Positions 25,538 through 57,037 of a stretch of 64,000 nt of DNA are shown one piece after another. Origin of the DNA: a virus. The notes beneath the pieces were generated by a model. That model did not search any database. It was not told the DNA's origin and was given only the letters and a program-made list of their open reading frames with translations. The DNA lies in the IMG/VR virus record IMGVR_UViG_3300027769_001114, positions 66,482 through 130,481 of that record; one strand, written 5' to 3'. The position numbers and the translations under genes were made by a program. Position 1 is the first letter of the stretch, and every line of letters begins with the position of its first letter.

Positions 25538-25987
25538 TTATTTCTTCGAGAAACGGAGACGAGTGTCGGGCCGGCGCAACTGTACGACCTTGTCGCCACG
25601 TTGTTTGCGGAGCAGATGTACGCGCAAGTTGATTGAACCGTCGGTTCGCTTGAGCTCCTTGGCGATCTTCGTCGCGGTATGCCCCTGCGACCACATCTTC
25701 ACGATGCTGTCGTCCTCTGCCTTGGTCCAGGACTGACCGTTGTTGACTCGGCGCACGATCTTCTTCGCCGGCTTGGTGGCCTTTGGTGCGACCTTCGGTG
25801 TGGTCTTGCCTCCGAAGAGCGAGGCGATCTCGGCATCAGTGAAACCGGCCTGAGTCAAGACGACTTCAGCGATCCACGAAAGCGTGAGTCCCTTGTCTTG
25901 CCAGATCGGGCCGAGTGAGTTGTCGCGGATCACTTCGAGGAGTGCTCGTGTATTTGTGCCCTTCCGGGCTTGGCTTGGTTGTTTCAT
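25538..25987 (-). CDS. HTH/Myb-like DNA-binding protein
   Basis: WT.AED..I..MW..G.T...IAKELKRT.GSI..R; conserved RBS element upstream. Confidence 0.7.
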   Translation of the reverse strand: MKQPSQARKGTNTRALLEVIRDNSLGPIWQDKGLTLSWIAEVVLTQAGFTDAEIASLFGGKTTPKVAPKATKPAKKIVRRVNNGQSWTKAEDDSIVKMWSQGHTATKIAKELKRTDGSINLRVHLLRKQRGDKVVQLRRPDTRLRFSKK

Positions 25988-26039
25988 AGCTGACCTCCTT
26001 GGTCATTATGTGTGTCGTGTCGTGTGACGCGATGTGTTG

Positions 26040-26069
26040 AGTGTAATGCGTGATCCATGTGCTTGTCAA
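26040..26069 (-). promoter_or_regulatory. sigma70-type promoter
   Basis: TTGACA-18-TACACT upstream of 25987. Confidence 0.6.
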
Positions 26070-26248
26070 GCGTTTGGCATGAACCACATTTCTTCTGCCG
26101 GCGTGTCCGGCGAGATGAGGTGGGTGATCCTTCGCTGAACGCGAGGGTGGGCATCTAGCCACGCCCAGGTTTCCTCCAGCGTTGCGAACGGCCCGAAGTA
26201 GACGACGTCCGTCATTCGGCCATGGATGACCATGTACGCACCGATCAA
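26066..26248 (-). CDS. small hypothetical protein
   Basis: YFGPFATLEE..AW; coupled. Confidence 0.55.
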   Translation of the reverse strand: MIGAYMVIHGRMTDVVYFGPFATLEETWAWLDAHPRVQRRITHLISPDTPAEEMWFMPNA

Positions 26249-26520
26249 GGCAATGCCTCAGCGAGCGCATCGGCCGCCCTGAGGGCGAACGATGACAGAT
26301 ATTTGTACGGTGCGGTACGCAACCACGAGAGGCACTCCTCAGCAGATGTGAAGACCTCGGTCTTCGAGTCCACCATGCTCCATTGGTAGAACCACTCGTA
26401 CGAGATGACCCAACGGTCCGACGATGTCGTGTGCATGTCGGCACGGAAACGTCCCTCGCCCGAATGTTCTTCGGTAAGGAATCGCACATTCTTGACAATC
26501 GAGACTTCAAGGGTGCTCAT
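26245..26520 (-). CDS. hypothetical protein
   Basis: ATGA-coupled to upstream gene. Confidence 0.55.
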   Translation of the reverse strand: MSTLEVSIVKNVRFLTEEHSGEGRFRADMHTTSSDRWVISYEWFYQWSMVDSKTEVFTSAEECLSWLRTAPYKYLSSFALRAADALAEALP

Positions 26521-27080
26521 GCTGCCACCCAGCTTTGATCCCATACGGGCATCGGTGCGTAGCCGTTCTCGGTGACGGCGATGACGACGCGATCGCAGAG
26601 TTTCATGTCGGCCCGACGCACGACGTTGATCGCCTGCGTGCTCCGAATGGACTTGAGAACAGCCTCCATGATTTCAGAGTCGCTCATGTTCTCCATGGCG
26701 CGCCCGTAGTCAACGCATGTGTAGATCGCACCACCGACACCGATGTTCTGTTGCCAGATGTTGTATGAGGTACCGGGGAATCGTTGGACATCCCAGTTCA
26801 CATAGTCAACCCACTCAGAGTTGTTGATGTAGGTGCAGATGTTCTCGTCTGCGGCGAACTCCCAATCGCCGTGGCAGGTCGAGCAGACCTCGCGCACGTC
26901 CTGGTTGTACTTGGTTCCGAAACCGTGGCAAGGACGGCAAGTCCTGCGACCGCCTCGTGGGCCATTCCCGGTACCGAGGCACTTGGGGCAGTCCACCTTG
27001 GTGGGGACACTACCTTCGCGGCAGTTTCGGCAACTTGTCTTGCCTAGTGTGAGTGTTCTTGTTTCGTGGTTGATCTTCAT
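26517..27080 (-). CDS. DnaJ-type zinc-finger protein
   Basis: CRNC..G, CPKCLGTG, CRPCHGFG, CSTCHG. Confidence 0.7.
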   Translation of the reverse strand: MKINHETRTLTLGKTSCRNCREGSVPTKVDCPKCLGTGNGPRGGRRTCRPCHGFGTKYNQDVREVCSTCHGDWEFAADENICTYINNSEWVDYVNWDVQRFPGTSYNIWQQNIGVGGAIYTCVDYGRAMENMSDSEIMEAVLKSIRSTQAINVVRRADMKLCDRVVIAVTENGYAPMPVWDQSWVAA

Positions 27081-27108
27081 AGTCGGCCTCCTTGGGGCTT
27101 GTATTTCC

Positions 27109-27149
27109 TTGACAAAAATAACTGTACTACATGGGTGTGACGGAGTCAA
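27109..27149 (-). promoter_or_regulatory. class A promoter unit
   Basis: TTGACT-17-TACAGT-6-TGTCAA. Confidence 0.75.
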
Positions 27150-27166
27150 GTCTTACCTTGACCCCG

Positions 27167-27451
27167 TCATCCGTTTGTTGATTCCTCAATAGGGATCCAT
27201 GGGCTTGAGGTCAGTTCGTCCATGGCATCCCAAACGAAAGACCAAATACTTTCCATTGACAGGCCGTCGATTTCGCCGCCCTTACCGCAGTAACCATCCT
27301 CTGTGATGAGTCCTTCAGGTATGTCAACCGAGATTGAGCCGAGGTACTCGCCTCGTTCTCGCCAGCGGTCAATCTCAATCGTGAGTCCGTTTTCTTTGGC
27401 GAACTTCTCGCACCGTTGTTTGTTAGGTTTCTGCTTTAGGTTTGTTTCCAT
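27167..27451 (-). CDS. small cassette hypothetical protein
   Basis: Conserved RBS element and class B promoter upstream. Confidence 0.75.
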   Translation of the reverse strand: METNLKQKPNKQRCEKFAKENGLTIEIDRWRERGEYLGSISVDIPEGLITEDGYCGKGGEIDGLSMESIWSFVWDAMDELTSSPWIPIEESTNG

Positions 27452-27481
27452 GACGGCCTCCTTGGGGCTTGCTGTTATTTA

Positions 27482-27531: not shown

Positions 27532-27867
27532 TCAAGCTTCGCAGTCGTGGCCATAGAGCCACTCGGCATGGTCGTCGTCGTTACCGAGGTTGAACTCACG
27601 TTCACACTCGACGCACTTCTTGACCAGAACGCTCCCACGACCAGAACAGACATCGCACTCGGTCGCTTGGGCCGGCCCGTCATAGACTCCACCACGCCCA
27701 TCACAAGCACGACATGACTGCGTGTTGGTCTTCCGGATGTTCCATCCTTCGTGTGTGGTGGCATGGTGAGCACTGTGAGGCTGAAGGCGGTGGAGTGCCG
27801 CGAAAGCTTCCGAGTCAGTCTCGTGGGTGCTGACGGTCTTGCCGTCTCTGCTCACGACCCAACTCAT
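27532..27867 (-). CDS. zinc-finger hypothetical protein
   Basis: CRACDGRG, CDVCSGRG, CVEC...HDC. Confidence 0.65.
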   Translation of the reverse strand: MSWVVSRDGKTVSTHETDSEAFAALHRLQPHSAHHATTHEGWNIRKTNTQSCRACDGRGGVYDGPAQATECDVCSGRGSVLVKKCVECEREFNLGNDDDHAEWLYGHDCEA

Positions 27868-28253
27868 GCTGACACCTTGGCCTCTGCCGAGAAACAGATC
27901 TCGGCGAGTTGGAAGCAGTAGATGTTTGAGATCTCGTTCACCACGACGACCTGACCCTTGTCCTTGCCGTTGGTGACGAGGCGAAGGGTGCGGACACTGT
28001 AGGTGTCGTCAAAGTCAAGGATGACCTCGATGGCACGGGTGGGTGTAGTGAACATCATTAGACCGACGATGTAAGTACCGACGACGTCCGGATCCGGTTC
28101 GCCCATGATGGCGGACATTTGGCCACCACATAGAGCGAGGGTGTTCATCAGGCCGATCTGCTCGGCGATGACTCGTGCGGAACATTCGCGGCCCTTGCGG
28201 TCAAAGCCTCGAGCTAGAAGTATTTTTGCTTGGTTGTTGGTGAGTTTTCTCAT
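27864..28253 (-). CDS. cassette hypothetical protein
   Basis: Conserved RBS element; V.LD.DDTYSV. Confidence 0.75.
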   Translation of the reverse strand: MRKLTNNQAKILLARGFDRKGRECSARVIAEQIGLMNTLALCGGQMSAIMGEPDPDVVGTYIVGLMMFTTPTRAIEVILDFDDTYSVRTLRLVTNGKDKGQVVVVNEISNIYCFQLAEICFSAEAKVSA

Positions 28254-28277
28254 GGTTGCCTCCTTGGGGCTATTTCG

Positions 28278-28318: not shown

Positions 28319-28633
28319 TCAGAAGGTAAGAAACTTGTCGGCGATTCCGAACATGACTTCTGCCGTCTTGGCGAACAGGGTCTCGTTGGCTTCGTGGAAC
28401 TTTGTCCACGCCTTGCCGGCGGAGTGGTTGCTGAGGTCGTGCTTAGTGATCGTGAGCCAACCGTCGGTAACGCTCCATGCCGACACAACCACATCGGACT
28501 GATAGTCGTAGTGGTTCTTGGTGATGGTGACCTTGACCCGTTGGCCATTCTTGCGTGCGCGGATCTCGGTGTAGATCGCATCGTTGGGCTTGTAGGCGGT
28601 GTTGCTGTCGATGAGTTCGTAGTTTGTGTTCAT
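28319..28633 (-). CDS. cassette hypothetical protein
   Basis: Conserved RBS element and class B promoter upstream. Confidence 0.75.
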   Translation of the reverse strand: MNTNYELIDSNTAYKPNDAIYTEIRARKNGQRVKVTITKNHYDYQSDVVVSAWSVTDGWLTITKHDLSNHSAGKAWTKFHEANETLFAKTAEVMFGIADKFLTF

Positions 28634-28664
28634 AGTTGGCCTCCTTGGGGCTTGCTGTTGTGTC

Positions 28665-28721: not shown

Positions 28722-29276
28722 TCAGCAGACCTCGTCCTTGTCGTTCAACCGATCAGCGATCTCGTCGTAGAACATCTCCATGGTGGCTTCGTCCTTGTCG
28801 TCCAACCGACTAGCGATCTCGTCGTCGATCTCCTTCCATCGGGCGGTGAGTTTTTCTAAGGAGTTGGCGAAGAACTCATCGCACTCGTCACCCCAGTCAT
28901 CGTCGTCATCTTCGTCATCGTCGTCGTCATCGCTCTCGTTCGCCCATTGGCTGATGAGGCTGACATAGCCGTCGTTCGGGTTATTAACGTTGGTGAACAC
29001 GGCGTTCACGAACCGGAGTCCGCAGGACTCGTCGTACCACTCTCGGACGACGGTGGCGAGGTCTTCTGCGTTCGCCTCAACGGTGCGGTCGTCGCAGTGG
29101 ACTCCGTTGTAGTTGGCACGAAACCATTCGGCCTGCTCCTGATCCATCGCAAGATAGATCTTGTGACAGCCATCGAAGGCGGCGAGTAGAGCGTCGTCGG
29201 CGTACTCGGCGACAGCGTCCCAGCCCTCGCCTAGATCGTCTGCGTTGTGTGGTTGGTATTGGTTTTGTGTTTTCAT
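28722..29276 (-). CDS. acidic cassette protein, paralog of 43734-44156
   Basis: Shared AFDGCHKIYLAMD..A.WF..NYNG..CDDRT. Confidence 0.8.
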   Translation of the reverse strand: MKTQNQYQPHNADDLGEGWDAVAEYADDALLAAFDGCHKIYLAMDQEQAEWFRANYNGVHCDDRTVEANAEDLATVVREWYDESCGLRFVNAVFTNVNNPNDGYVSLISQWANESDDDDDDEDDDDDWGDECDEFFANSLEKLTARWKEIDDEIASRLDDKDEATMEMFYDEIADRLNDKDEVC

Positions 29277-29337
29277 ATTGGCCTCCTTGGGGCTTGTTTC
29301 TTTGACAGTTGTATCTTGACAGGGGGGTGTGGCAGAG

Positions 29338-29562
29338 TTAGCTGGTGAAGGTGTACAGGCCGTTGACGACCCTGTCCTCTACGTACTCAACAAACTCGCC
29401 TGAGATATCTCCCCATGAGGCGGCCTCTCGTATCCCCTCAATGATGGAGATCACATCCACCGAAATGATGAGCTTGCCATCTTCGCCGATCTCGACCGAG
29501 ACTGCGCATCCGGCGTTTGCCGATTCCTCACGAATGTTTCCTGCATTTTCTGATGTTTTCAT
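29338..29562 (-). CDS. small acidic cassette protein, paralog of 41611-41829
   Basis: Shared RE.S..GC....E.G.DGKL.I..D..SI. Confidence 0.75.
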   Translation of the reverse strand: MKTSENAGNIREESANAGCAVSVEIGEDGKLIISVDVISIIEGIREAASWGDISGEFVEYVEDRVVNGLYTFTS

Positions 29563-29586
29563 ATTGGCCTCCTTGGGGCTGTTTCG

Positions 29587-29658: not shown

Positions 29659-29841
29659 TCATTCGTCCGGATCTAGGAATCCGTGGCCATTGTCTAAGCA
29701 CCACTGACGAGCCTGATCAAGTGACTTGAAAATCAAGTCGTACTCGTCGCCGTAGTCAACGACCGGCAGTAGGACACAATAAGTGTTGCCGTAGCCGTCG
29801 CGGCCTTCCCTGAACCTGTAAACCTTCACTGATGTTTCCAT
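29659..29841 (-). CDS. small cassette hypothetical protein
   Basis: Conserved RBS element; both promoter classes upstream. Confidence 0.7.
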   Translation of the reverse strand: METSVKVYRFREGRDGYGNTYCVLLPVVDYGDEYDLIFKSLDQARQWCLDNGHGFLDPDE

Positions 29842-29875
29842 AATGACCTCCTTGGTCGTTATTTGCTGTTGAGAG

Positions 29876-30048: not shown

Positions 30049-30080
30049 GGAAACGCCGAGACACGACCAAGGAGGTCACT

Positions 30081-30305
30081 ATGAAAAAGACCAATGAAAT
30101 CAAGGTTTTCGTAGCAGTTATCCAAACCAAGTACGAAGTGATGGCCGTGGCCGACACCGAGGAGGGCGCACGTGAGGCGGCCGTCAACAAGGCGTGGGAA
30201 TACCTGTCGGGTGTCAAGACCGACCTCAAGAAGTGGGAGATCGCCGACTACTTCGGCGTGGCCGTCACCGAGCTCGTCCTCAACGGTTCGGGCGAGTTCT
30301 GCTGA
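30081..30305 (+). CDS. small cassette hypothetical protein
   Basis: GACCAAGGAGGTCACT-ATG start. Confidence 0.75.
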   Translation: MKKTNEIKVFVAVIQTKYEVMAVADTEEGAREAAVNKAWEYLSGVKTDLKKWEIADYFGVAVTELVLNGSGEFC

Positions 30306-30341: not shown

Positions 30342-30374
30342 GATACATACCAATAAATGACCAAGGAGGTCGCC

Positions 30375-30788
30375 ATGAAAACATCAACGAAGTTAGTCCA
30401 CCCCACACCCGAACTATCCGAGCGAGTGATCGCCGTCTGCGAGTATCCACAATGGTGCTTGGATGACGACGGCAACCACACCTGCGTGCCGGACGACATC
30501 GAACCTGCTCGTAAGTACGCCCTCGTGATCGTCAAATCCCACGAGACTCGTGATGGTGCGTATTGGGAGGGTTTACTGTTTCGCAACGGCGAGGCGATCC
30601 TAGATGTCTCCAACGACGGTTGCGGTGGGCCGAACATGTACCACCCCATCCCAGGCCAAGCCCACCCCAACTGGCGAGAGGACTTGGAAACACTCAAGGC
30701 CGACGCACAGAAGGCGTTCCCGCGAGTCAAGTACGAACTTGAGGATGTCCTCATGGGCTACTTGGACATGATCGCCAACGCAGTCTGA
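30375..30788 (+). CDS. cassette hypothetical protein
   Basis: Conserved RBS element; V.NDG.GG motif. Confidence 0.75.
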   Translation: MKTSTKLVHPTPELSERVIAVCEYPQWCLDDDGNHTCVPDDIEPARKYALVIVKSHETRDGAYWEGLLFRNGEAILDVSNDGCGGPNMYHPIPGQAHPNWREDLETLKADAQKAFPRVKYELEDVLMGYLDMIANAV

Positions 30789-30871
30789 TCGGAACGAAAG
30801 CGGGGGTGTCGGCAACTGTGCCACACCCTCGCGGCACAATCTCATTATCAGCAACGACCAAGGAGGTCAAT

Positions 30872-31171
30872 ATGGAAACATCAACTAAGACAGTCAAGGA
30901 TCCGTGCATTTGGTGCGAGCAGTCCACCGCTTTCGGCTCGGGTCGTTTCGTAAACCGGATTCCGGCAGATCGGGACGACGAAGAGGCCACCATCGACGGG
31001 TGGGCTTGCGCCGAGTGTGCGGGCTACGAGTGCGACGAGTGCGGCGAGCAGATCTATCTGGACTCCGAGGTCAGGGTTGACCACCTTGCCGTCGGTGGCG
31101 AGTACCAATACGGCAACTACCACGAGGCCTGTTACTCCCGAACGAAACACGGCCCGATCGCCGAGTACTGA
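30872..31171 (+). CDS. Cys-rich cassette protein
   Basis: CIWC..STAFGSGRFVNRIPA, CAEC, CDEC, HEAC. Confidence 0.75.
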   Translation: METSTKTVKDPCIWCEQSTAFGSGRFVNRIPADRDDEEATIDGWACAECAGYECDECGEQIYLDSEVRVDHLAVGGEYQYGNYHEACYSRTKHGPIAEY

Positions 31172-31294: not shown

Positions 31295-31795
31295 ATGACA
31301 ACCGAGAGCCACCATTACGACGCCCGATGGGCAGTCAACGTCGACGGCATCAAAGCATGGGCGGCCAAGAACGGCAGCCCGATGGCCCCAGCCGGAGCGA
31401 CGATCCGCCTGCGTGACGGCCGGACGGCCAATGTCGGCACGTTCGTTGCGTACGCTCGAGCTAGGCACCGGAAGGGCCTGCTCGACGAGCGTCGAGTCCG
31501 CGAGCTGTCACGCATCCCGGGCTGGACGTGGGACAGACTGTCTCCGGGGCCGAAGGGCAAGGAGTCACGGAACGAGGAGATCCGCCGCCTGCGGGCTCAG
31601 GGCGTGACTCTCGCTGAGATCGCGGAGAAGTTCGAGATGTCGAGACAGCGTGTGCATCAGATTGCGCCGGATGCCCCGGAAGAGTCGAGGCACGAGGCCC
31701 ACCTCGAGAAGCGCCGGAAGCAGCGCGCAAAGCTGAACGTCGAGAAGGTTCGAGCTGCCGTGTCAGCTGCAAAGAACCGGAAGGTGTCGCGTTGA
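31295..31795 (+). CDS. helicase-associated-like domain plus sigma region-4-like HTH protein
   Basis: VGTFV...R.....G.L...R..EL..IPGWTWD; G.TLAEIAEKFEMSRQRVHQI. Confidence 0.7.
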   Translation: MTTESHHYDARWAVNVDGIKAWAAKNGSPMAPAGATIRLRDGRTANVGTFVAYARARHRKGLLDERRVRELSRIPGWTWDRLSPGPKGKESRNEEIRRLRAQGVTLAEIAEKFEMSRQRVHQIAPDAPEESRHEAHLEKRRKQRAKLNVEKVRAAVSAAKNRKVSR

Positions 31796-32066: not shown

Positions 32067-33533
32067 TCAGCGGTAACGCTTGTCGCGTTCCCCTGGGAGA
32101 GTCACCGTGCGCAACTCCTTGCCGTAGGCACTAACCCACGAACGTCGCCACACAGGCGGGTACCAACGTCTTGGCTTCTTGCCCTTGCGCAGTTCTTTGA
32201 GCATCACGATCGCCGACTCAACATTCGGTCGCATGATGATGCCGTTGGTGATTGCGAGCTTGGCACATTCAATGCCCTGTGAGTCCTCGTACCGTTGGCT
32301 CGGCCCGTGGACGAGACCATCGGTGATCCAAACGACAGGAGCCTTGCGACTCTGACGTTGTTCAATGGCCCAACGCGCGGCAGGACCATCGACGCCGTTG
32401 CCCTGAACTCGTTCGGGCATCTCGGCGACCATCTTGCCCTTGTCGGCGATGACGAGCAGGTTTGGCCTGACTCTGTCGTTGCTGTTGGAGCAATACACGG
32501 CGACGGTACAGCCGGGTGCGGACTCAAGGATTGACTTGATGTCGTCCTGAGAGAACTTCATGGAAGCCGAACCGTCAATGAGCACAACGCCACCGACAGT
32601 TTTCCTAGTGGTGTCGAATACCTTGCGATCGGGGTCGGTCAGCATCCGAGACATCCGCCTTGGCGATGTGCCAATGTTGGAGGCTTTACGTTTGCGACCG
32701 AGACCGCCTGGTGCCGGCTTGGTCAACGGTAGGCGAGCGATACGAAGGTCGTCCCACCATGAGCCAGCATTGGAGGGCTTCATGCCCTTGATCTCCTCGG
32801 CCTTGGGCGGTTCGGGCTTCTTGGGCGATGCCTGAGCCTCGCCGGCATCCTGTTCCTCGGTGTCGTCCTCGTGTGGATCGTCGGCCGGTGGTGCCGGCGG
32901 GTTGGCGATCTGTTCAATCATGACGGCGATGGCCTCGGTGTACGAGTATCCCCACGGGGCGACCCCTGCGAGTTCATGTACCGATGTATCGGCAAGCTTG
33001 ACCGAGGGGATGTTGTTGATCCACTTGACCAGATTGTCGTTGAGGGTACGGAGCGTCTTGGCCCATTCAGGCTTGTGCTTACGTACGCCCTTAAGGAACT
33101 CCGTGATGCGTCCCGTGTTACCGGAGGCGACCGCGGCGTAGACCGCATCGGCCCACCGATCGTTCTCGGCGAGATACTCACCGCCGGGCTTCTCTGTACC
33201 ATCGGCGACACTGGCCATGTCGAAGCCTGCGCGCTTGCAGAGGGTGTTCACGCGGAACTCCTCAGCAGCGACGAAGGCGGCCATTGGTGCGCGACCCCTG
33301 GCGAGCCACACTCTCGTGTCCTCGGCAACGGGCGAGACCTTGGCGTGCATCATCTCGTGCGCACGAATACAACGCTCCAGGGCATTGTCGCCCTTCGGCA
33401 CTTGTATCTTGCGTTCGGTGACGTTCGTCCACGACTGACCGGGAGCGAGTGAGACCTCATTGACATCCCACGACCCGTGTTCCGCATCATCGCGGCCCAA
33501 CAGGTCGGGCATGACTATGGTCGGCCTACTCAC
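32067..33533 (-). CDS. HExxH plus vWA-domain protein (MoxR partner)
   Basis: AHEMMH..., EEFRVN; VVLIDGSASM (MIDAS); VVWITDG. Confidence 0.78.
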   Translation of the reverse strand: MSRPTIVMPDLLGRDDAEHGSWDVNEVSLAPGQSWTNVTERKIQVPKGDNALERCIRAHEMMHAKVSPVAEDTRVWLARGRAPMAAFVAAEEFRVNTLCKRAGFDMASVADGTEKPGGEYLAENDRWADAVYAAVASGNTGRITEFLKGVRKHKPEWAKTLRTLNDNLVKWINNIPSVKLADTSVHELAGVAPWGYSYTEAIAVMIEQIANPPAPPADDPHEDDTEEQDAGEAQASPKKPEPPKAEEIKGMKPSNAGSWWDDLRIARLPLTKPAPGGLGRKRKASNIGTSPRRMSRMLTDPDRKVFDTTRKTVGGVVLIDGSASMKFSQDDIKSILESAPGCTVAVYCSNSNDRVRPNLLVIADKGKMVAEMPERVQGNGVDGPAARWAIEQRQSRKAPVVWITDGLVHGPSQRYEDSQGIECAKLAITNGIIMRPNVESAIVMLKELRKGKKPRRWYPPVWRRSWVSAYGKELRTVTLPGERDKRYR

Positions 33534-34243
33534 TTGATCACCGTGTCAATGGCGATTGCGTCAAGGACGGCCTGAGCAAGCTTCTCACCGAATACCATCT
33601 CGGCCGCATAGACCTGATCGCCGAGTGACTTGGTCAACTTGTCGAAAGCCATGAACTGACGGAGCGAGATACGACGCTCACCAAGGTCGGCGGCACGCCG
33701 TGCGTAGTCGCGCAAGTTCGGCGACAGACGCAGGAGAGCGTCGGGGTGAGGTTCGTTGATCCTGATACGGACGGGGAAGCGATCAACGAGGGCTTCGGGC
33801 AGTTCGTCCATGTCCTCGGCATTGGTCGTACAGACGACGCTGTATCCCGCCGATGCGACGACGTTGCCGTTCAGACCGGGGTGGTCAAGGGCGATTGAGT
33901 CGTCACTGTCGGTGACGGCGAGGAGGGTCGCAAGGACATCGCCTGATGCCTTGTCAACTTCGTCCAGGATGAGCCGGCCACCGTTGCGGAGTGCGTTGGT
34001 CGCACCGCCGTCGCGCCAAGCCCACACACCGTCGCCGGTGGGAAGCCAGTGCCCGGTCACATCGGCGGATGTCATATCCTCCGTGCAGTTGACCTTCCAT
34101 GCTCCGTTGCGGACATTGCCGAATGTCAGGCCGGCGAATGTTTTGCCGGTTCCTGGTGGCCCGAAAAGGAGGAGACGGTCGATGCCCGACTCCAATGCGT
34201 CTTGTGCGTACTTCCAGCACTTAGGTAGTTCTGATGTTTTCAT
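33530..34243 (-). CDS. MoxR-type AAA+ ATPase
   Basis: GPPGTGKT, WRDG, LILDEVDKA, TTN, LPEALVDRF, ISLR. Confidence 0.9.
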   Translation of the reverse strand: MKTSELPKCWKYAQDALESGIDRLLLFGPPGTGKTFAGLTFGNVRNGAWKVNCTEDMTSADVTGHWLPTGDGVWAWRDGGATNALRNGGRLILDEVDKASGDVLATLLAVTDSDDSIALDHPGLNGNVVASAGYSVVCTTNAEDMDELPEALVDRFPVRIRINEPHPDALLRLSPNLRDYARRAADLGERRISLRQFMAFDKLTKSLGDQVYAAEMVFGEKLAQAVLDAIAIDTVIK

Positions 34244-34272
34244 GGTGACCTCCTTGGTCGTTGTTTATGTCA

Positions 34273-34340: not shown

Positions 34341-34817
34341 TCACCAGGACGACGAGTAGGAGAAACTCCAGTCGTCGGGGACGGTGTTGAGGAGACGGGT
34401 GATGGTCTCGGCAGTCCACGAGAGTTGCTCGTAGTACCACTCATCAAAGTTTCCTGAACCGAAGAAGAAACCAGCGACGGGTGGCATGATCTCGCCGGCC
34501 TTGTCGCGGTTGTCCAATACGGACTGACAGAGCGACGCAAGTTCTGCGAGTTGCTTACGTTCGACGCCGTACTCGCGGCAGTCGTCGTCACCGTTCTGAA
34601 TGTTCTGAACGAACCAACCGTGTATTTGATTGGCCTTGCGCCACTGAGCGACACCGACCTTGACTTCGGTCATGGTGTAACCGTTCGGATCCGGCGTGAT
34701 GAACTCGTCGGCTCCAGCGAAGCTGATGATGCTTCGGGCCGCATTGTTCTCGTCGTCCTTATTCCATCGGGCGATGCTCTGATACTTGGTCACTGTAAGT
34801 GTTTGGTCTAATCCCAT
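34341..34817 (-). CDS. conserved phage hypothetical protein
   Basis: MGLD, WRKANQIHGWF, GFFFGS..DEWY, Y.SSW. Confidence 0.8.
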   Translation of the reverse strand: MGLDQTLTVTKYQSIARWNKDDENNAARSIISFAGADEFITPDPNGYTMTEVKVGVAQWRKANQIHGWFVQNIQNGDDDCREYGVERKQLAELASLCQSVLDNRDKAGEIMPPVAGFFFGSGNFDEWYYEQLSWTAETITRLLNTVPDDWSFSYSSSW

Positions 34818-34841
34818 AGTTGCCTCCTTGGCGTTGTTTAC

Positions 34842-34951: not shown

Positions 34952-35383
34952 TTATTTCTTGACCGAGGGCTTTTTGGGCTTCGGTGTCACCTTGATGCTC
35001 GCGGCGACCGGGACGAGGCTTGAGGCCTTGTCTGCGACGTCCTGCGAGATGTAGCCCGACTCAACAGCACCCTTGAAGGCGTCAAGATCAACGGACTTCT
35101 TGGTGAGGTTGTCGTACACCTTGCTCGGCACGAGTTCGGCGAGGACTTCTGCGTCCACACTCAGTCGGCCGTCCGACTCAACGAGTGTCACTTGGGTTTC
35201 GTCGGCGAGTTCAACCTTGACGATCCCGGCGGACTTGAACGCTTCGATTGCGTCGTCCTGGGCTCGCTTTGCGGCGGCCTTGGCGTCCTTCTCGGCAATG
35301 CGAGCGAGGACTAAAGCTTGGGCCGCATATTTGGCGAGCTCGGTGGATACTGACTGTGTTTGGGTTTCATGGGTTGTTTTCAT
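34952..35383 (-). CDS. cassette hypothetical protein
   Basis: Conserved RBS element; helical N-terminus, basic tail. Confidence 0.75.
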   Translation of the reverse strand: MKTTHETQTQSVSTELAKYAAQALVLARIAEKDAKAAAKRAQDDAIEAFKSAGIVKVELADETQVTLVESDGRLSVDAEVLAELVPSKVYDNLTKKSVDLDAFKGAVESGYISQDVADKASSLVPVAASIKVTPKPKKPSVKK

Positions 35384-35469
35384 GGCTGACCTCCTTGGTC
35401 GTTTTGGTTACTTACTCATAGTGCCAGGGGGGTGTGTCAGAGTTGTTCCGACTCACTTCCTGTCAAGAT

Positions 35470-35581: not shown

Positions 35582-35612
35582 GGAAACACCGAGACAGACC
35601 AAGGAGGTCACC

Positions 35613-35875: not shown

Positions 35876-35906
35876 GTCTCAACAACGAATGACCAAGGAG
35901 GTCACT

Positions 35907-42087: not shown

Positions 42088-42089
42088 CC

Positions 42090-46861: not shown

Positions 46862-46885
46862 AGCGACCTCCTTGGTCTTCATTAC

Positions 46886-47011: not shown

Positions 47012-47042
47012 GGAGATACCGAGACAGACTAAGGAGGTCATT

Positions 47043-47222
47043 ATGGAAGCAACATCAACTCCACATGACGAACTCACACTCGTTACCTGCGCCTGTGGTT
47101 GCGGGGAGCAATGGATTGTTCCTTGGGATGAATACGACTACATCAAGTCTCAAAAGGGCGGACGGTTTTACTACTTGTCTACCTGCGAAGCAAAGAGGCC
47201 CGCACACTTCCGTGTGGGTTGA
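47043..47222 (+). CDS. small Cys-containing cassette protein
   Basis: CACGCG...C; RBS element variant GACTAAGGAGGTC. Confidence 0.7.
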   Translation: MEATSTPHDELTLVTCACGCGEQWIVPWDEYDYIKSQKGGRFYYLSTCEAKRPAHFRVG

Positions 47223-47230: not shown

Positions 47231-47263
47231 CAAACAACAACAACAATGACCAAGGAGGTCACC

Positions 47264-47683
47264 ATGGAAGTAACCAAAGAGTTAGCAGTTCAAGTCAGTG
47301 CCGAGATCAAAAAAGCGGTGGAAGAAATCCTCGCCAAGCACGGTCTCGCCGAACCCAAAGTGAAGACGACTTACGGAGACATCTACAAGTTAGTCATTGA
47401 GAGTTCCGTCGAAGCCAAGGACGCATCAGGCGTAAACACAAAGTCCGCCGAAGCGATCTACTACACACGATTCGGATATACGGCGTACGACGCGGCGTTC
47501 AAGGCGACCGAACTCGTTGCCCCACTCGGCACAAAGTTCAAGACGGGCGGAGTTGAGTACGCCTTCGCAGGCATCAACTCAAAGAAGCCAAAGTTCTCCA
47601 TCTCGGCGATCAGGGTCGCCGACGGTCGGACGATCGCCATGACCGATGTGGTCGTGCCACTCATCAACTCTTCCGCCTCCTGA
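47264..47683 (+). CDS. cassette hypothetical protein
   Basis: LGTKF..GG.EY...GIN..KPKF; conserved RBS element. Confidence 0.75.
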   Translation: MEVTKELAVQVSAEIKKAVEEILAKHGLAEPKVKTTYGDIYKLVIESSVEAKDASGVNTKSAEAIYYTRFGYTAYDAAFKATELVAPLGTKFKTGGVEYAFAGINSKKPKFSISAIRVADGRTIAMTDVVVPLINSSAS

Positions 47684-47777: not shown

Positions 47778-47801
47778 CGAAATACGACCAAGGAGGTCAT
47801 T

Positions 47802-48083
47802 ATGAACGGAACACAGAACGGGTGGCACTCACCCATGTACTACAAGGTCAGGAGCACCGTCAGGTTCGTCTTCTGGACGGGTCTGATTGGCGGAACGGTG
47901 TTGGTCGGCAAGTGGTTGGTCGACACCGCCTACGGCGATCAGAGACCCGCCTGCCCCGTCGTCGTGAAGCCCGACTTCACGTGGGCGAGGTCTGATGCGA
48001 CAACCGCCTTCTCTCTCGCCGACTGTCGTCCACCACAGAATGTCGTCCTCTACAACGACGGCACTTGGGGTTGGGAGAACTGA
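47802..48083 (+). CDS. small membrane-anchored cassette protein
   Basis: One TM segment; conserved RBS element. Confidence 0.7.
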   Translation: MNGTQNGWHSPMYYKVRSTVRFVFWTGLIGGTVLVGKWLVDTAYGDQRPACPVVVKPDFTWARSDATTAFSLADCRPPQNVVLYNDGTWGWEN

Positions 48084-52144: not shown

Positions 52145-52198
52145 TACCAAGTCGCCTCAGGGCGGCACTACCTATACACATAAACCAAGGAGGTAACG

Positions 52199-52681
52199 AT
52201 GACACCAAAAGACATCGACGAAGAATACAAGGCAGCCGTTACAGCTCTACAGGAGGCCCACGGATCGTGGACATCTGCGATGAATGATCCTGAGTGGGTC
52301 GTCATTAGCGAGCGCAGTCGGGCGAAGTACGCCATGATGCTGAATCCGGAGACAGAACCCGAGAGGGTGATGACGATGTTCTCTATTGACCGCCGTGTCA
52401 AGGAGGAGATCCTCGGTCGAGCGGTTGAGTTCGCTCCGAAGAAACGCAAGGACGCCTACAAAGTGGCGATCCTTGAGTGGGCCGCCGAGAACGTCGGTGC
52501 CATCGTTACCGCATCAGCACTCGCCGCTCAGTGCGACACCACGTCGTCGAGCGTCCGAGGTTTCATCAACGAACGCCCGGACATGTTCTGGGCAGCAAAG
52601 AAGAAGGGTTCGTACGAAGTGCGCGACCCGAAAGCAGACCGAGAGGCCGAGAAAGCGGCCGGAAAAGGGAAGAAAACATGA
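52199..52681 (+). CDS. hypothetical protein, possible winged helix
   Basis: ACCAAGGAGGT RBS element. Confidence 0.7.
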   Translation: MTPKDIDEEYKAAVTALQEAHGSWTSAMNDPEWVVISERSRAKYAMMLNPETEPERVMTMFSIDRRVKEEILGRAVEFAPKKRKDAYKVAILEWAAENVGAIVTASALAAQCDTTSSSVRGFINERPDMFWAAKKKGSYEVRDPKADREAEKAAGKGKKT

Positions 52682-53457
52682 AAAATAACCAAACCAACAA
52701 GTCAGCTATGACCCGGGACGAGACAATGGCGGCCATGTACGTGGCCGGCAAGACACTCCAGGAGATCGGCGATGCGTACGGCGTGACTCGCGAGCGTGTC
52801 CGTCAGGTGCTGTCGAAACAGGACGTCTCAAGGCGCAAGCCGCTTGACCAGGCCCGCCGGACTCACAATGCGTCGGTCGAAGCAAACCGGGGAACCATCC
52901 TTAGACTCTTCGAGAAGACGCGCAATGTGAAGGAAACCGTTGCTCTTCTTTCGGGAGGCATCCCCGCAAGGGTCGTACGCGAGGTGCTTGCCCCCGTGGC
53001 ACATACTCAGGTGCTAACCAGGAAGGGCTCGGATAAGGACTTCAGCGACGATCAGATCTCCGCCGCAATCATTGAGGCAGAACGACTCGGTTTCACGAGC
53101 GTCATCTCGTACGGAGCGTGGAGAGAAGCGCAAGCGAAGAAGGGCCGTCGTGTTCCGTCGGTCGCAACCATCACGGTTCGGCATGGATCATGGTCGTCGG
53201 CCCGTCGCATGGCGGGTGCTCGCGTCGTCACTGAGCGAATGTCGCCGTCGTGTCAGGTGTTCACCGATCAGCAGATCCAAGAGTCAGTCGACAGGTTCGT
53301 CACAGCGGTTGTCCAAGTCGGGTCAACGCCCACGACACGCCGTTACGACGAGTGGTCAAGGAAGGTCGGCGACGTCCCGTTGCTCTCAACCGTCCGTGCC
53401 CGAACAGGAAAGTCATGGTCATCCTTGACAAGGGAGTCCTTGACTCGCTATTCTTGA
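52678..53457 (+). CDS. sigma region-4-like HTH plus two helical repeats
   Basis: TLQEIGDAYGVTRERVRQV; two FSD.QI...Y..W....VP...T...R.G.SW repeats. Confidence 0.72.
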   Translation: MKNNQTNKSAMTRDETMAAMYVAGKTLQEIGDAYGVTRERVRQVLSKQDVSRRKPLDQARRTHNASVEANRGTILRLFEKTRNVKETVALLSGGIPARVVREVLAPVAHTQVLTRKGSDKDFSDDQISAAIIEAERLGFTSVISYGAWREAQAKKGRRVPSVATITVRHGSWSSARRMAGARVVTERMSPSCQVFTDQQIQESVDRFVTAVVQVGSTPTTRRYDEWSRKVGDVPLLSTVRARTGKSWSSLTRESLTRYS

Positions 53458-53506
53458 CAGTTCGTACTAATACACATTCCAACACACGTTTACCAAGGAG
53501 GTAACA

Positions 53507-54043
53507 ATGAAGAAGAAACCAAACATAATGATCTCTACCCGTTGGGAGGCGGCACGATGGTGCCACTCCTATGACCATGTCCTTACGGTGTTCTCGCCGT
53601 GGTGGCATTGCGATTGGGGCCACGGCGACCATCTGATCGTCGAGTTCCAGGATCGCTACCTTGACCGAGAGGGCGCACCGACGCTTTCTCAGATTGACGA
53701 CATCCTCTGTTGGGCATACCCACGGCTGATGCCCTTTTCGGCCACTCAGGACGATTCAATGTTGATCCACTGCAAGGCAGGTCAGTCTCGTTCAACGGCG
53801 GTTGCGATTGCCATCTGTGCGATGATCGGGATGTCCGAGGAGGAGGCATTTAGCTATGTCTACTCAGAGTGCCGTCCCGCCGGGAAGGTGGGCGTGCGCC
53901 CGTTCATACCTAATATGCGAGTCCTTGAACTTGCTGACGAACTATTGGGCACGAACCTCGTGTCGGCCCATGTCTCGCTTGACGCCACAAAAGAACCCGA
54001 GTGGATGTCTGGCTACCCACGGCTGCTGGATGTGAAGCGATGA
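53507..54043 (+). CDS. protein tyrosine phosphatase-like protein
   Basis: LIHCKAGQSRSTA (CX5R), EFQD, PN. Confidence 0.85.
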   Translation: MKKKPNIMISTRWEAARWCHSYDHVLTVFSPWWHCDWGHGDHLIVEFQDRYLDREGAPTLSQIDDILCWAYPRLMPFSATQDDSMLIHCKAGQSRSTAVAIAICAMIGMSEEEAFSYVYSECRPAGKVGVRPFIPNMRVLELADELLGTNLVSAHVSLDATKEPEWMSGYPRLLDVKR

Positions 54044-54327: not shown

Positions 54328-54650
54328 CACAGAGCAGCACAACGTGGCGTGACTCGGCGGCGTGCCGCGGGGTTGAGAAGGACTTCTACCCGGCGTCCGG
54401 CAAGAACAATCTGAGGGTCAGGGCCATCGTAAAGGAGGCCCTGGCGATGTGTAACGGCTGCCCCGTCCGGCTCGACTGCCTGAACTGGGCGGTCGAGAAC
54501 AAGGAGTTCTACGGCATCTGGGGAGGGACGACCGAACGTGAGCGCAGGCTAATGATTGAGAACCACGCCCCCTTTGCTGATACGACCATTCGTATGCCGA
54601 TCGTTGAGATAGGTAGCATCATGCTCCCAAGGGAGAAGGAAAGTGAATGA
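54324..54650 (+). CDS. whiB: WhiB family transcription factor
   Basis: WRDSAAC, C.GCPVR.DCL.WA, GIWGGTTERERR. Confidence 0.93.
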   Translation: MTQSSTTWRDSAACRGVEKDFYPASGKNNLRVRAIVKEALAMCNGCPVRLDCLNWAVENKEFYGIWGGTTERERRLMIENHAPFADTTIRMPIVEIGSIMLPREKESE

Positions 54651-55062: not shown

Positions 55063-55238
55063 GTCGTGTGGAGTCACGGTACGAACGCGCCGACTTCCTC
55101 CGGGCGGACAACGCACTGCAGCTAGTCGAGGCGCTGGCTCGTCAGATCGACGACCCGGAGCTTCTCTCGACGCTGCTGTCAAGGATCACGTCGGTGGCCG
55201 AGGCCGTTGCGTACCGTTCAACGCGGGGAGTTTCCTGA
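55059..55238 (+). CDS. small hypothetical protein
   Basis: 59-aa GTG ORF coupled on both sides. Confidence 0.5.
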   Translation: MSRVESRYERADFLRADNALQLVEALARQIDDPELLSTLLSRITSVAEAVAYRSTRGVS

Positions 55239-55666
55239 TGCCGGCGGATCGGAGGAGGGAAGTCCTCAATGAAGCGTCCTCGCTCGTCAACGGCGATAGG
55301 AACGAGACCTACGGTGACCCCTACGACGACTACATGAAGGTCTCGAAGATGTGGAACGCCTACCTCGAGGGGCTGATGAAGCGTAGGGGGATCAGCGTGT
55401 CGCCTGCGCTGACTGACCTCATTGAGCCGCACGATGCCATCGCAATGATGGTGCTGCTGAAGACGGCCCGCATCGCCAATGCGCCGGGACATCGAGACAA
55501 CTGGGTCGACCTCGCCGGCTATGCAGCCTGCGGATGGGATGCCTATGGAGGGCCAGGTGCGCAGTCACGGGCGGCGGACAACGCAGAGCCGCCACGCGGA
55601 TCGAGGAATCCGTATGACATTCGAGAGGCAGTGGCAGCTTGGCGCAAAGAGAACGGGCCTGGCTGA
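55238..55666 (+). CDS. DUF6378-like phage protein
   Basis: L.EA..LVNGDR...YG.P......MW..YL, MMVLLK.AR, H.DNWVDLAGYAA. Confidence 0.75.
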   Translation: MPADRRREVLNEASSLVNGDRNETYGDPYDDYMKVSKMWNAYLEGLMKRRGISVSPALTDLIEPHDAIAMMVLLKTARIANAPGHRDNWVDLAGYAACGWDAYGGPGAQSRAADNAEPPRGSRNPYDIREAVAAWRKENGPG

Positions 55667-55872
55667 TGGGCTGCACGAGCGACGTCGTCCGGGCTGCGGC
55701 CGGGATCGTCGAGTCCGGGTCTCCGGTGACAGTCGAGGGCATCTCGAAGTCCTGGGGCCGGAGCTATGGGTCGACGCAGCGCATGGTAAGGCATGCCGTG
55801 ACTCTCGGATGGCTCGAGGAGTCGACGTATGCCCCCACCCCCGCCGGCCTCGAAGCGTGCGGCCGCATCTGA
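55666..55872 (+). CDS. small winged-helix-like protein
   Basis: TV..IS...GRS..ST...V...V..GWL....PT.AG. Confidence 0.5.
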   Translation: MGCTSDVVRAAAGIVESGSPVTVEGISKSWGRSYGSTQRMVRHAVTLGWLEESTYAPTPAGLEACGRI

Positions 55873-55909
55873 CTCGGTGCTGCGCGGGCGGCTAGTAGCC
55901 TCTCAGGGC

Positions 55910-56491
55910 ATGAGCCCGCATCCCATCGACATGACGTACGGCGTCCTCGATGCGGCCAAGCAGACGAAGTCGGAATCGGTTCGCTCGATGGGCGTCGGCA
56001 CCGATGTGCTGCCGTGCGTGTTCTGCTTCGATGACACCGGGGTCGTCGAGTCCTATGCGATCCTGATTGAGAACGATTCGTCAAGGACGCTCAACATCGC
56101 TCTCCTCGAGGCCGTAGCGGTGATGCGCCGGTCATGGGGCTGCCACGCCGTGGTATGGGCACACGAGTCCTACACGGCCCCTCCGAGCGACGATACGAGG
56201 ACGTTAGTCGAACGCTTCCCCACCGACCCGGAGGTCGAGGAGTGCATCACCCTGCTGTGCGTGACGATCGAGGGCGATGCTGCCTATGTGGTGCAGCCCT
56301 ACAAGGTGGGCGTCGGCCGGCGCATCGAATGGGCCGAACCCCGGGTGGGCGTCGGGTTCTCGACGGAGCATGAGCTTGCCGATGTGGCCCACCGGATACT
56401 GAGGCAGACCGAGGTGGACAGGTATGCCCTGCCGCACGAGGGCATCACCGCCTTGGGTGAGCTCGGCTTCATGGCGACAGACAACGGCTAG
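55910..56491 (+). CDS. hypothetical protein
   Basis: 193-aa ORF with coding-like composition. Confidence 0.6.
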   Translation: MSPHPIDMTYGVLDAAKQTKSESVRSMGVGTDVLPCVFCFDDTGVVESYAILIENDSSRTLNIALLEAVAVMRRSWGCHAVVWAHESYTAPPSDDTRTLVERFPTDPEVEECITLLCVTIEGDAAYVVQPYKVGVGRRIEWAEPRVGVGFSTEHELADVAHRILRQTEVDRYALPHEGITALGELGFMATDNG

Positions 56492-56613
56492 TGGTCGTCG
56501 TCGTCCCTGCTGATGAGCGTGGGTGCGACGATCATGAGGAGGACACTGACGGCGATGAGGACTGCTGTCTCGAGCACGTCCCCACCGTACCCCCACGGCC
56601 CACTCTCGTGGCC

Positions 56614-56973
56614 TCAGGTGCGTTGGGTGAGTGTCTCTAGGAGTGCCGTCTTGAACTCCTCCCCCAAGCCCGCACGGATCGCCGTGAGGTACTCGTGCCT
56701 CTGTTCGTCGGTCGCCTCCTCGTCCATCCAACGGTCAATGATCGCACTCGCCTGCTCCTCAACGATGACGGCTTCCATGCGTGCGTCCTCCGCCTTCTGC
56801 TCCTCATAGAGGTCGCAACGGTGGGCGATCTTGATGGTCTTCATGACCCACCCGTTCTCGTTCTTGATGTGCGCACCCTCCATGGGGGTGAGATACCACT
56901 TGCCCGCCTTGCTCTGCGCCCACTTCAGGTCAGGGCATCCGCACTTCTTGCATGTGATCGGCTTCTTCTCCAT
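56614..56973 (-). CDS. cassette protein with Zn-binding motif
   Basis: CKKCG...W..SK.GKWY...H.C; conserved RBS element. Confidence 0.75.
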   Translation of the reverse strand: MEKKPITCKKCGCPDLKWAQSKAGKWYLTPMEGAHIKNENGWVMKTIKIAHRCDLYEEQKAEDARMEAVIVEEQASAIIDRWMDEEATDEQRHEYLTAIRAGLGEEFKTALLETLTQRT

Positions 56974-56997
56974 AGCGACCTCCTTGGTCATGTCTCA

Positions 56998-57037
56998 TTG
57001 ACAGACATACCATACCTCAAGGGTGTGACAAAGTCAA
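56998..57037 (-). promoter_or_regulatory. class A promoter unit
   Basis: TTGACT-17-TATGGT-5-TGTCAA. Confidence 0.75.

Follow-up and report, generated by a model that had tools for sequence, protein, structure and literature searches.

The 64,000-nt stretch of viral DNA analysed here (positions 66,482 to 130,481 of IMG/VR record IMGVR_UViG_3300027769_001114; called the window below) holds an array of 35 small genes, on both strands, that all begin with a copy of one short header. At the centre of this header is a 13-nt motif which contains a ribosome binding site (RBS) and stands directly before the ATG start codon, and most copies have a promoter-like element shortly upstream. A sequence-only reading of the window had proposed about 35 such starts and had described the block as an array of individually headed expression cassettes; the motif is in place at all 35 of the positions it listed, and the cassette description is supported. 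We consider it probable that the header is a start module for strong and uniform expression that doubles as a recombination joint. This explanation is based on the motif, its exclusive location in the genome, its constraint in related viruses, the turnover of the cargo genes behind it and the positions of the junctions between cassettes. With respect to known systems, the array shows nearly all testable features of the start-associated sequences (SASs) of cluster K mycobacteriophages and most features of the promoter-stem-loop (PeSL) cassettes of T4-type phages.

The start motif and its header

At each of the 35 positions the motif directly precedes an ATG-started open reading frame (ORF) of 52 to 237 amino acids (aa). 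Over the whole 130,481-bp record there are 23 exact copies of the 13-mer, GACCAAGGAGGTC, 12 of them forward and 11 reverse, and all lie within window positions 25992–56989, with none in the upstream 66 kb of structural genes; a reversed control pattern gives 0/0 matches in the record. The inner sequence AAGGAGGT is found 28 times, compared with 1.56 +/- 1.18 in 100 shuffles, none of which reaches 28, and ACCAAGGAGGT, with at most one mismatch, has 28 copies where 0.99 are expected. The sequence-only reading had seen no copy in 1–25 kb or 57.1–64 kb; outside the block, the window contains only a one-mismatch 11-mer at 58214 on the reverse strand and, at 5327, a AAGGAGGT whose surroundings are not those of the motif. 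The sequence-only reading had also pointed to late genes as the place where the motif would speak against early-specific regulation; it is absent before the structural genes. As in SASs, we are dealing with a 13-bp asymmetric repeat with symmetric outer bases (GACC-N5-GGTC) that is confined to the non-structural part of the genome. Together with the 23 exact copies there are 12 variants: one more GACCAAGGAGGTC-type 13-mer that begins with GACT (24 of this type in all), six adjacent copies at 27087–29578 of the form CCCCAAGGAGGC(C/A), that is CCCC..GGC(C/A), and five singles (CGCC, CCAC, GGCC, AACC..GGTA and TACC..GGTA). The strand changes 12 times along the 35 ORFs, in line with the many flips seen earlier. 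We did not find the exact 13-mer in the literature text searched.

Header anatomy was scored on the 34 copies caught by our first pattern. The header consists of an A/C-rich leader, the 13-nt motif (GACC-AAGGAGGT-C) holding a full 8-nt Shine-Dalgarno sequence (SD), a spacer of 5–7 nt, ATG, and A-rich codons 2–6. Between AAGGAGG and the start codon there are 5 nt in 25 copies, 6 nt in 7 and 7 nt in 2, and the fraction of A in codons 2–6 is 0.54 compared with 0.24 later within the same genes. All 34 motif-led ORFs start with ATG, as against 73 of the 112 other called ORFs (at least 60 aa), a contrast that is somewhat inflated because our simple home-made ORF caller rewards both SD and ATG.

How much of this header is held constant can be read from related viruses. 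A scan of viral contigs with a 15-nt form of the motif returned at least 111 stretches, most of them single-copy and probably chance matches; among the matches listed, five contigs are related to the window: R1 (22.9 kb, about 95% identity), R2 (about 94%), R3 (about 74%, GC content 68%), and R4 and R5 (both about 70%). All five carry the same 13-mer before small ORFs, and in R3–R5 it also stands before non-homologous ORFs; as with SASs, the motif precedes genes of different families and is kept in related phages. In 37 header pairs between the window and R1 or R2, identity in the core (positions -15 to -6) is 0.99–1.00, with third codon positions at 0.90. In six pairs between the window and R3 the core remains at 0.90–0.97, whereas the rest of the header has dropped to 0.33–0.73 and the spacer to ATG to 0.53. 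Because the core outlasts the remaining header in these pairs, the constrained part is a stretch of about 10 nt and not the whole 60–90 bp that the sequence-only reading had taken as the repeated unit. The motif flanks are conserved across lineages as well.

Promoter-type elements of the headers

Most of the genes were expected to have their own promoter within about 100 bp, and a promoter-like element (sigma70-like, box plus -10, or the class B element described below) is indeed found within 135 nt in 31 of the 35 motif-led genes. Counted by gene, 14 have a class A element (two of them also class B), 8 a plain sigma70-like site (one also class B), 3 only the box with a -10 and 6 only class B; of the 4 genes with none, one has a TTGACA site that our pattern missed. 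Class A reads TTGACT, two bases, the spacer box GTCACACCC, six bases, a -10-like hexamer and a leader starting GTCAAGGAA (TTGACT-N17-(-10)). All 13 strict class A copies of the genome are inside the array, and class A sites form six back-to-back pairs between divergent genes. AT content is 57% in the 45 nt before the class A -35 and 43% in the window overall. An independent scan for the sigma70 consensus gives 19 sites at 25–45 kb (6.7 +/- 2.5 in shuffles), nearly all of them TTGACT-N17, and 13 sites at 44–64 kb (6.5 +/- 2.3). These predicted promoters thus have the form seen in PeSLs, a repeated sigma70-consensus promoter with an AT-rich upstream region. They also have that of the extended start-associated sequences (ESASs) of cluster K, with the -35 CTTGAC and the leader GTCAAG as inverted copies flanking a sigma70-like promoter; a weak 7-bp stem can form between the boxes.

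The leader has a feature of its own. In 19 of the 35 headers a further CAAGGA-type motif lies some 20 nt before that of the start motif (for example at window 30040–30076, 35575–35608 and 41575–41606). It is the GTCAAGGAA with which the predicted class A leader begins, and it repeats the -35 CTTGAC in inverted form. Its role might be that of a standby ribosome site or of an operator half-site.

The class B element is a (G/C)CGCACAC box, GCGCACAC, followed after exactly 16 nt by CGTT(C/A)TA (CGTTMTA). All nine copies of the record are inside the array, and R3 has at least eight more. When the 17 copies are folded, 15 have a negative z score and 6 fold better than all 200 of their shuffles; the stems (5–16 bp) vary in sequence and register, and CACACUU forms the middle of the loop in every case. 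By analogy with the composite logic of PeSLs, we read the hairpin as a putative attenuator for the gene upstream and the two boxes as a promoter-type site. One may instead take class B as an RNA element for processing, stability or antitermination between co-transcribed genes, and not as a promoter at all: eight of the nine copies immediately follow a stop codon and have genes of the same direction on either side, and most form the hairpin with its conserved CACACUU loop. However, two boxes at an invariant distance around a free 16-nt spacer resemble protein-DNA contacts, the hairpin varies in register and length, and the sole copy that heads a transcription unit (35470–35500) keeps both boxes without the hairpin (z +1.5). 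We regard the RNA element as doubtful, though far from negligible.

Class B and sigma70-like or class A elements stand in tandem or overlap at 34853–34932 and 35470–35507. At 35479–35507 the GCGCACAC box occupies the place that GTCACACC has in the class A spacer, and this shared position hints that the two boxes are related.

Cassette turnover and the reading of the header

The genes behind the headers are small, acidic and mostly unrecognisable, as had been described. The isoelectric point is at or below 5.4 in 25 of 34 motif-led ORFs. Pfam profiles match these 34 cargo ORFs with eight families, each in a single ORF, and since five of the eight are AAA/MoxR-type models, probably only about 4 of the 34 have any Pfam match; PHROGs gives 16 families, again each in one member, of which 5 have a named function. 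The elements are concentrated in a hyperplastic region and before ORFans, as PeSLs are. By protein similarity there are only two paralogous pairs among the 65 ORFs of the array, so the identity of the headers is not due to gene duplication. One of these pairs, 28722–29276 and 43734–44156, encodes acidic proteins (aspartate and glutamate together 29–30%) with repeats of the GAC/GAT type. In the first of these genes, an in-frame deletion of 117–123 bp at 28786–28912 is present in R1 and in an independent contig, and the low-complexity repeat accounts for spikes in contig depth there.

Comparison with close relatives shows whole cassettes coming and going. R2 lacks two cassettes (28652–29564; event K1), with the crossover in a 17-nt motif stretch common to both sides. 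In R1, one ORF is swapped exactly from start to stop codon for an unrelated 76-aa ORF (J5), and in another place the motif and its ORF are replaced between a class B element and the next promoter (J1). A further event, J4, is an in-frame deletion in an acidic repeat, and an 8.7-kb contig of the independent run X9 breaks at the same J1 and J4 positions. Of the four whole-cassette differences in close relatives, three (K1, J1 and J5) have their junction at the motif or at ORF ends, which is what is described for PeSLs. Over all events, 4 of 20 break ends fall within 5 nt of a motif where 0.50 are expected (p about 0.002), and 5 of 20 within 10 nt of a called ORF end where 1.59 are expected. In more distant relatives the cargo is reordered: among 14 motif-led ORFs of R3, 5 are syntenic, 4 relocated and/or inverted and 5 new, with two genes like that at 30375 and one like 28722/43734 lying across the divergent node, on the other arm and strand. 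R4 has 5 motif-led ORFs, 2 of them syntenic, 1 relocated and 2 new.

Close variants of the stretch are found in freshwater metagenomes from several studies, and 20 of 22 listed sequencing runs contain part of it, all as contigs. Leaving out the acidic low-complexity repeats (28896–28932 and 43737–43779) and joints inside the helicase, 9 of 20 joint ends in these run contigs are within 10 nt of a motif compared with 0.84 expected, most of them with sides of 21–35 nt that may be header cross-matches. Two joints that go back have short sides only (34 and 40 nt), and contigs cannot prove circles; the inversions and excised circles that the sequence-only reading looked for in reads do not appear as any convincing joint in these runs, which held contigs only.

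From these observations we infer promoter activity and early timing for the headers, translational strength for the motif, recombination as the cause of the junctions, and a function for the cargo. In the proposed mechanism, host RNA polymerase and ribosomes would be drawn to many short, insulated transcription units, and a large set of small proteins would thereby be made strongly and together. Homologous recombination at the headers, which we propose because one short header precedes unrelated ORFs, would delete, replace, relocate and invert cassettes. The anatomy, constraint and turnover parts of this mechanism are well supported. The anti-defence or host take-over role that the sequence-only reading gave the cargo is a conjecture.

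Several results weigh against this explanation. Positions G1, C3, C4 and C13 of the 13-mer are conserved, and a plain SD role does not explain them; the reward that our ORF caller gives to SD and ATG also counts here. A profile search for sigma70 region 2 has no match in the phage, which has region-4-like helix-turn-helix (HTH) motifs only, in three ORFs and with weak PDB matches (best E 9e-4, about 30 residues), and nothing that could read class B or the motif, be it a sigma factor, an RNA polymerase or an RNA-binding regulator, was found in the phage. Contigs of the RNA-labelled run X17 cover 27 of 30 bins, mostly at 90–95% likeness, and because DNA may be present in the run this cover is no evidence of transcription; bins that lack such cover are likewise uninformative. 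With regard to recombination, the window and both R1 and R2 run collinear for 12–23 kb apart from the few events above, with order and orientation almost fully kept, and 16 of the 20 break ends lie away from the motif, in intragenic divergence or at ORF 3' ends. One event in R1 (J9, at window 43040–43063) inserts 666 bp with a 208-aa ORF between 24-nt direct repeats of an ORF 3' end, not of a header, the last codons of the inserted gene being the same as those of the preceding ORF. Junctions at ORF boundaries would also be favoured by selection alone. The claim that cassettes are shuffled at headers thus survives in part: relatives show gain, loss, replacement, relocation and inversion, with some junctions exactly in the motif, but most break ends are elsewhere and the closest relatives have hardly been rearranged.

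The conserved flanks lead to a different reading, which is compatible with the start module: a regulator acting in trans, either a small RNA or a protein of phage or host, would use the 13-mer as its operator and switch the translation of all 35 mRNAs on or off together. This follows the logic of a phage translational repressor regulon. In its favour, the flanks GACC..GTC beyond the SD are kept across lineages at 26–30% nucleotide divergence while the spacer to ATG drifts freely, and the class A leaders supply the second CAAGGA-type motif in 19 of 35 headers; the same argument is published for cluster K SASs, which in the available text conserve positions beyond SD pairing (Pope et al. 2011, PMC3203893). 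On the other hand, the phage offers no candidate binder among the families searched (no RegA-type and no cold-shock domain match, and a sub-threshold CsrA match of 11.7 bits in an ORF of the structural region), and the six adjacent copies with a CCCC..GGCC flank indicate that the flanks are not strictly required. We think an operator unlikely, though worth keeping in play. With the same tentativeness we suggest that the header might be a lineage-wide "exchange standard", an adaptor that would ensure expression and serve as crossover point among co-infecting freshwater actinophages; its non-SD flanks would then be read by a factor that acts in trans and times the regulon. The same plan, with lineage-specific motifs (12–33 copies per 15–21 kb), seems to hold in more distant relatives. 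If true, this would be a general and so far undescribed organising principle of a large uncultivated phage clade.

All the relatives are metagenome contigs and many run-contig joints have short sides (21–35 nt) that may be header cross-matches, so short-read mis-joins at repeated headers could in principle produce apparent shuffling. However, the two sides share just 17 identical nt at K1, which should be shorter than the usual assembly words; J1 and J5 hold new sequence and are not mis-joins; J1 and J4 recur in the 8.7-kb contig of a different study; and R3 and R4 differ throughout. An assembly artefact is accordingly improbable.

Still less probable is that the motif forms a small RNA hairpin, with a GACC/GGTC stem and an AAGGA loop, for a protein of the CsrA/RsmA type. 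The main variant can form a 4-bp stem, and pairing is kept in the single copies CGCC..GGCA and TACC..GGTA and, through wobbles, in GGCC..GGTC and GACT..GGTC, but the commonest variant (the six CCCC..GGC(C/A) copies) breaks the two outer pairs and the phage has no CsrA above threshold, a family that is above cut-off in only 3 of 14 control genomes. The two WhiB genes described below indicate an actinobacterial host and, to our knowledge, Actinobacteria lack CsrA. It is equally hard to credit that the headers are alike merely by common descent, as a tandem gene family or through local gene conversion and with no selected function: the adjacency of the six CCCC..GGC copies (27087–29578) suggests local spread or conversion and two paralogous pairs are present, but this reading is largely refuted by the lack of similarity beyond those 2 pairs among 65 ORFs, by the same 13-mer before non-homologous ORFs in R3, R4 and R5, and by a core far better kept than third codon positions or the neighbouring header.

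Known systems, genome context and feature list

The sequence-only reading named SASs and PeSLs as analogues, and both are apt; the anatomy in the literature matches. According to the available text of the reports, each cluster K SAS is a 13-bp motif that has symmetric ends and includes the SD; SASs stand 3–9 bp before 11–19 starts and prefer ATG. They are found in the non-structural (early lytic) arm before unrelated gene families, their role is stated to be unknown, and their function is still called ill-defined in print (PMC3203893; the Adephagia study, PMC11373665; PMC12699233). About half have an upstream ESAS of about 50 bp with a putative promoter and an imperfect inverted repeat (PMC3203893, PMC11373665). 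The array shares the 13-nt SD-containing motif before ATG, the non-structural arm, the unrelated genes and the upstream promoter element. As far as those texts go, it differs in the motif sequence, GACCAAGGAGGTC not being the cluster K consensus; in having 35 copies on both strands with 12 switches, compared with 11–19 in essentially one orientation; in its two promoter classes; and in its documented cassette junctions at the motif. Its phage is a lytic-looking freshwater myovirus of about 130 kb, whereas cluster K phages are temperate siphoviruses of about 60 kb. A different 13-mer in the RBS position, in ten copies and with a linked upstream conserved element, is described for Microbacterium cluster EF in the text available (Jacobs-Sera et al. 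2020, PMC7302621); that case, for which the text describes no analysis of shuffling, shares with ours the length and position of the motif but not its sequence or copy number, and shows that the SAS kind of element recurs across actinophages.

PeSLs of T4-type phages, as far as the available text describes them, are composites: an AT-rich region and a strong sigma70-like promoter, with a stem-loop that overlaps its boxes or lies between them, are followed by an SD and start codon before ORFans (PMC2839356, PMC4122927). They occur in hyperplastic regions, and where close relatives differ by an indel or a replacement, PeSLs stand at the junctions (Arbiol et al. 2010, PMC2839356; Comeau et al. 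2014, PMC4122927). The array has similar parts, its stem-loop being a predicted one, and likewise shows junctions at cassettes. In contrast to the array, whose most conserved part is the RBS motif and not the promoter, PeSLs as described there have no invariant RBS motif; their hosts are Gram-negative, whereas ours is probably actinobacterial; and their promoter and terminator activity and mini-circles have been shown experimentally, while the array is known from sequence alone. What sets the array apart from these systems is its sequence, copy number, bidirectionality and second promoter class, together with the phage type and the habitat.

The comparison to an "integron without an integrase" does not go beyond metaphor. 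Integron arrays likewise consist of small, unrelated, exchangeable ORFs, but here the repeats are RBS and promoter motifs, attC and attI sites are missing, no one promoter serves all the genes, their orientation varies, and no integrase appears in Pfam and PHROG scans of the array's larger ORFs and the 34 cargo ORFs, no dedicated integrase search having been made. Any exchange of cassettes would be by general homologous recombination. The stoperators of cluster A mycobacteriophages are sites at which a repressor acts on transcription, and their placement does not follow the RBS. They resemble the motif, as far as the sources on them go, in being 13-bp asymmetric sites in many copies near gene boundaries in the non-structural arm; unlike in cluster A, we identified no repressor or lysogeny module.

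These comparisons extend SASs to an uncultivated freshwater actinophage with a regulon two to three times larger and in both orientations, and they link SASs to modular exchange of the PeSL type; the result is a natural data set with a fixed motif in front of changing cargo. In practical terms, the motif can serve to mark those genes of these phages that are probably early, the roughly 35 small acidic proteins are candidates for host take-over functions, and the uniform promoter-leader-RBS module is a ready-made candidate expression part for actinobacteria.

The viral record (130,481 bp) is estimated to be 88% complete, and the window is its last 64 kb. The 66 kb upstream encode the major head protein, portal, large terminase (TerL), tail sheath and other virion proteins; a prohead protease domain at window 60136–63183, near the window end, implies that the structural module runs on round the contig end. 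The array block (25.5–57 kb) is thus flanked by primase/helicase (22612–24423) and the head module. There are two WhiB-family genes, one inside the array region (54345–54551) and one outside (20746–20937), with E values of 1.1e-21 and 8.9e-17, and as the family is above cut-off in only 1 of 14 control genomes, they indicate an actinobacterial host. A scan with the class A core gave no further host lead, its 80 single matches in cellular genomes of unrelated phyla being read as chance. Against the phage collection, megablast with window 38000–48000 and tblastn with the 488-aa anchor found no match, and the best TerL identity is 47.5%, to Gordonia phages, so that collection holds no annotated (cultured) relative. 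We take the phage to be a lytic-looking freshwater myovirus of at least 130 kb, and the block is probably its hyperplastic non-structural, early region. Table 1 lists the features.

Table 1. Motif-led cassettes and other features of the array, in window coordinates
Feature	Position	Strand	Remarks
Whole array	25538..57037		35 motif-led ORFs, 13 strict class A, 9 class B, 12 strand switches
SAS GACCAAGGAGGTC + 149-aa ORF	25538..26004	-	sigma70-like promoter upstream
SAS variant CCCCAAGGAGGCC + 187-aa ORF	26517..27097	-	class A 27121-27149
SAS variant + 94-aa ORF	27167..27467	-	class B 27482-27512; SAS and ORF replaced in R1 and X9 contig (J1)
SAS variant + 129-aa ORF	27864..28269	-	class A 28289-28317
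SAS variant + 104-aa ORF	28319..28650	-	class B 28665-28695; left side of two-cassette indel K1
SAS variant + 184-aa acidic ORF	28722..29292	-	paralogue of 43734-44156; absent in R2; R3 homologue on opposite arm and strand
SAS variant + 74-aa ORF	29338..29578	-	class A 29598-29626; replaced start to stop in R1 (J5), absent in R2 (K1)
SAS + 60-aa ORF	29659..29857	-	class B 29876-29906 and sigma70-like site
SAS + 74-aa ORF	30065..30305	+	class A 30008-30036; divergent node with 29841
SAS + 137-aa ORF	30359..30788	+	class B 30311-30341; two homologues in R3, opposite arm and strand
SAS + 99-aa ORF	30856..31171	+	box plus -10 only
SAS + 237-aa ORF, conserved anchor (85% identical in R3)	33530..34259	-	sigma70-like promoter
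SAS variant CGCCAAGGAGGCA + 158-aa ORF	34341..34833	-	class B 34902-34932 in tandem with class A 34853-34881
SAS + 143-aa ORF	34952..35400	-	class B boxes 35470-35500 inside sigma70-like promoter; heads transcription unit
SAS + 73-aa ORF	35597..35834	+	class A 35542-35570
SAS + 80-aa ORF	35891..36149	+	class B 35845-35875 (hairpin z -3.5)
SAS + 125-aa ORF	37412..37805	-	no promoter-like element found
SAS + 75-aa ORF	38013..38256	-	sigma70-like promoter
SAS variant CCACAAGGAGGCC + 160-aa ORF	38311..38810	-	class A 38834-38862
SAS variant GGCCAAGGAGGTC + 52-aa Cys-rich ORF	38963..39138	+	class A 38907-38935; precedes SNF2 helicase
SAS + 77-aa ORF	41184..41435	-	class A 41462-41490; homologues elsewhere in array of R3, R4
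SAS + 72-aa ORF, paralogue of 29338-29562	41595..41829	+	class A 41546-41574
SAS + 66-aa ORF	41870..42087	+	box plus -10 only
SAS (inside end of preceding ORF) + 201-aa ORF	42072..42695	+	without own promoter
SAS + 120-aa ORF	43306..43684	-	class B 43698-43728
SAS + 140-aa acidic ORF	43734..44172	-	class A 44202-44230
SAS + 65-aa ORF	44335..44548	+	sigma70-like promoter
SAS + 70-aa ORF	44588..44816	+	without own promoter
SAS + 81-aa ORF	46616..46877	-	class A 46898-46926
SAS variant GACTAAGGAGGTC + 59-aa ORF	47027..47222	+	sigma70-like promoter
SAS + 139-aa ORF	47248..47683	+	class B 47200-47230
SAS + 93-aa ORF	47786..48083	+	TTGACA-type site after strong hairpin (unscored by pattern)
SAS variant AACCAAGGAGGTA + 160-aa ORF	52183..52681	+	sigma70-like promoter
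SAS variant TACCAAGGAGGTA + 178-aa ORF	53491..54043	+	sigma70-like promoter
SAS + 119-aa ORF, last copy	56614..56989	-	class A 57009-57037
166-aa DNA-binding ORF, not SAS-led	31295..31795	+	HA domain PF03457, weak sigma70 region-4-like HTH; anchor in R1-R4
488-aa conserved anchor (phrog_33218)	32067..33533	-	query for 78 related loci
SNF2-family helicase within array	39126..41165	+	lies inside the block
326-aa ORF	52477..53457	+	sigma70 region-4-type HTH (32.5 bits), no region 2
WhiB-like gene	54345..54551	+	E 1.1e-21; actinobacterial-host marker

Attempts to follow the lineage with other markers had mixed returns. The SNF2 helicase gave 57 loci, with the motif only in a near-identical contig, and is a poor marker; the DUF932 protein gave only 3 distant loci. 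The class A core matched 11 viral stretches, and five new records among them were rejected as motif arrays after being checked whole for CCAAGGAGGT, of which they hold 0–2 copies each.

The 488-aa anchor has 78 related loci, many of which have dense repeats of their own (L204, L201, L228, L229, L242, L185, L191 and many of L186–L257), mostly on one strand and often shortly before small ORFs. Per 15–21 kb we count TAATAGATAACT 25–32 times, AGGTGTAGGTAAG 23–33 times, GAGTAGATAAGT 30 times and TGTCCGACCCC 12 times; L204 has one 11-mer 32 times in 18 kb and L229 another 33 times in 21 kb, and a GACGGTGGTGGAA-type motif is widespread at 4–9 copies. L185 has 12 copies of TGTCCGACCCC plus CTACACT, all on the same strand and each followed by an SD and a small ORF, and L188 shares GTCACACCC and CCAAGGAGGT with the array. 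These repeats may be lineage-specific promoters of the same genome plan. Two relatives of the helicase, L014 and L037 (GC content 63–65%), each contain ACCCCCGAGGAGC three times, which may be an SD-embedded repeat of another lineage.

Directly past the array's last class A promoter lies a tRNA-Arg gene (anticodon CCT) at window 57068–57141 on the reverse strand. In the head module, outside the window, a 2826-aa ORF (G000:C1:6763-15243) has pentapeptide repeats (E 4e-56) as its only recognisable domain.

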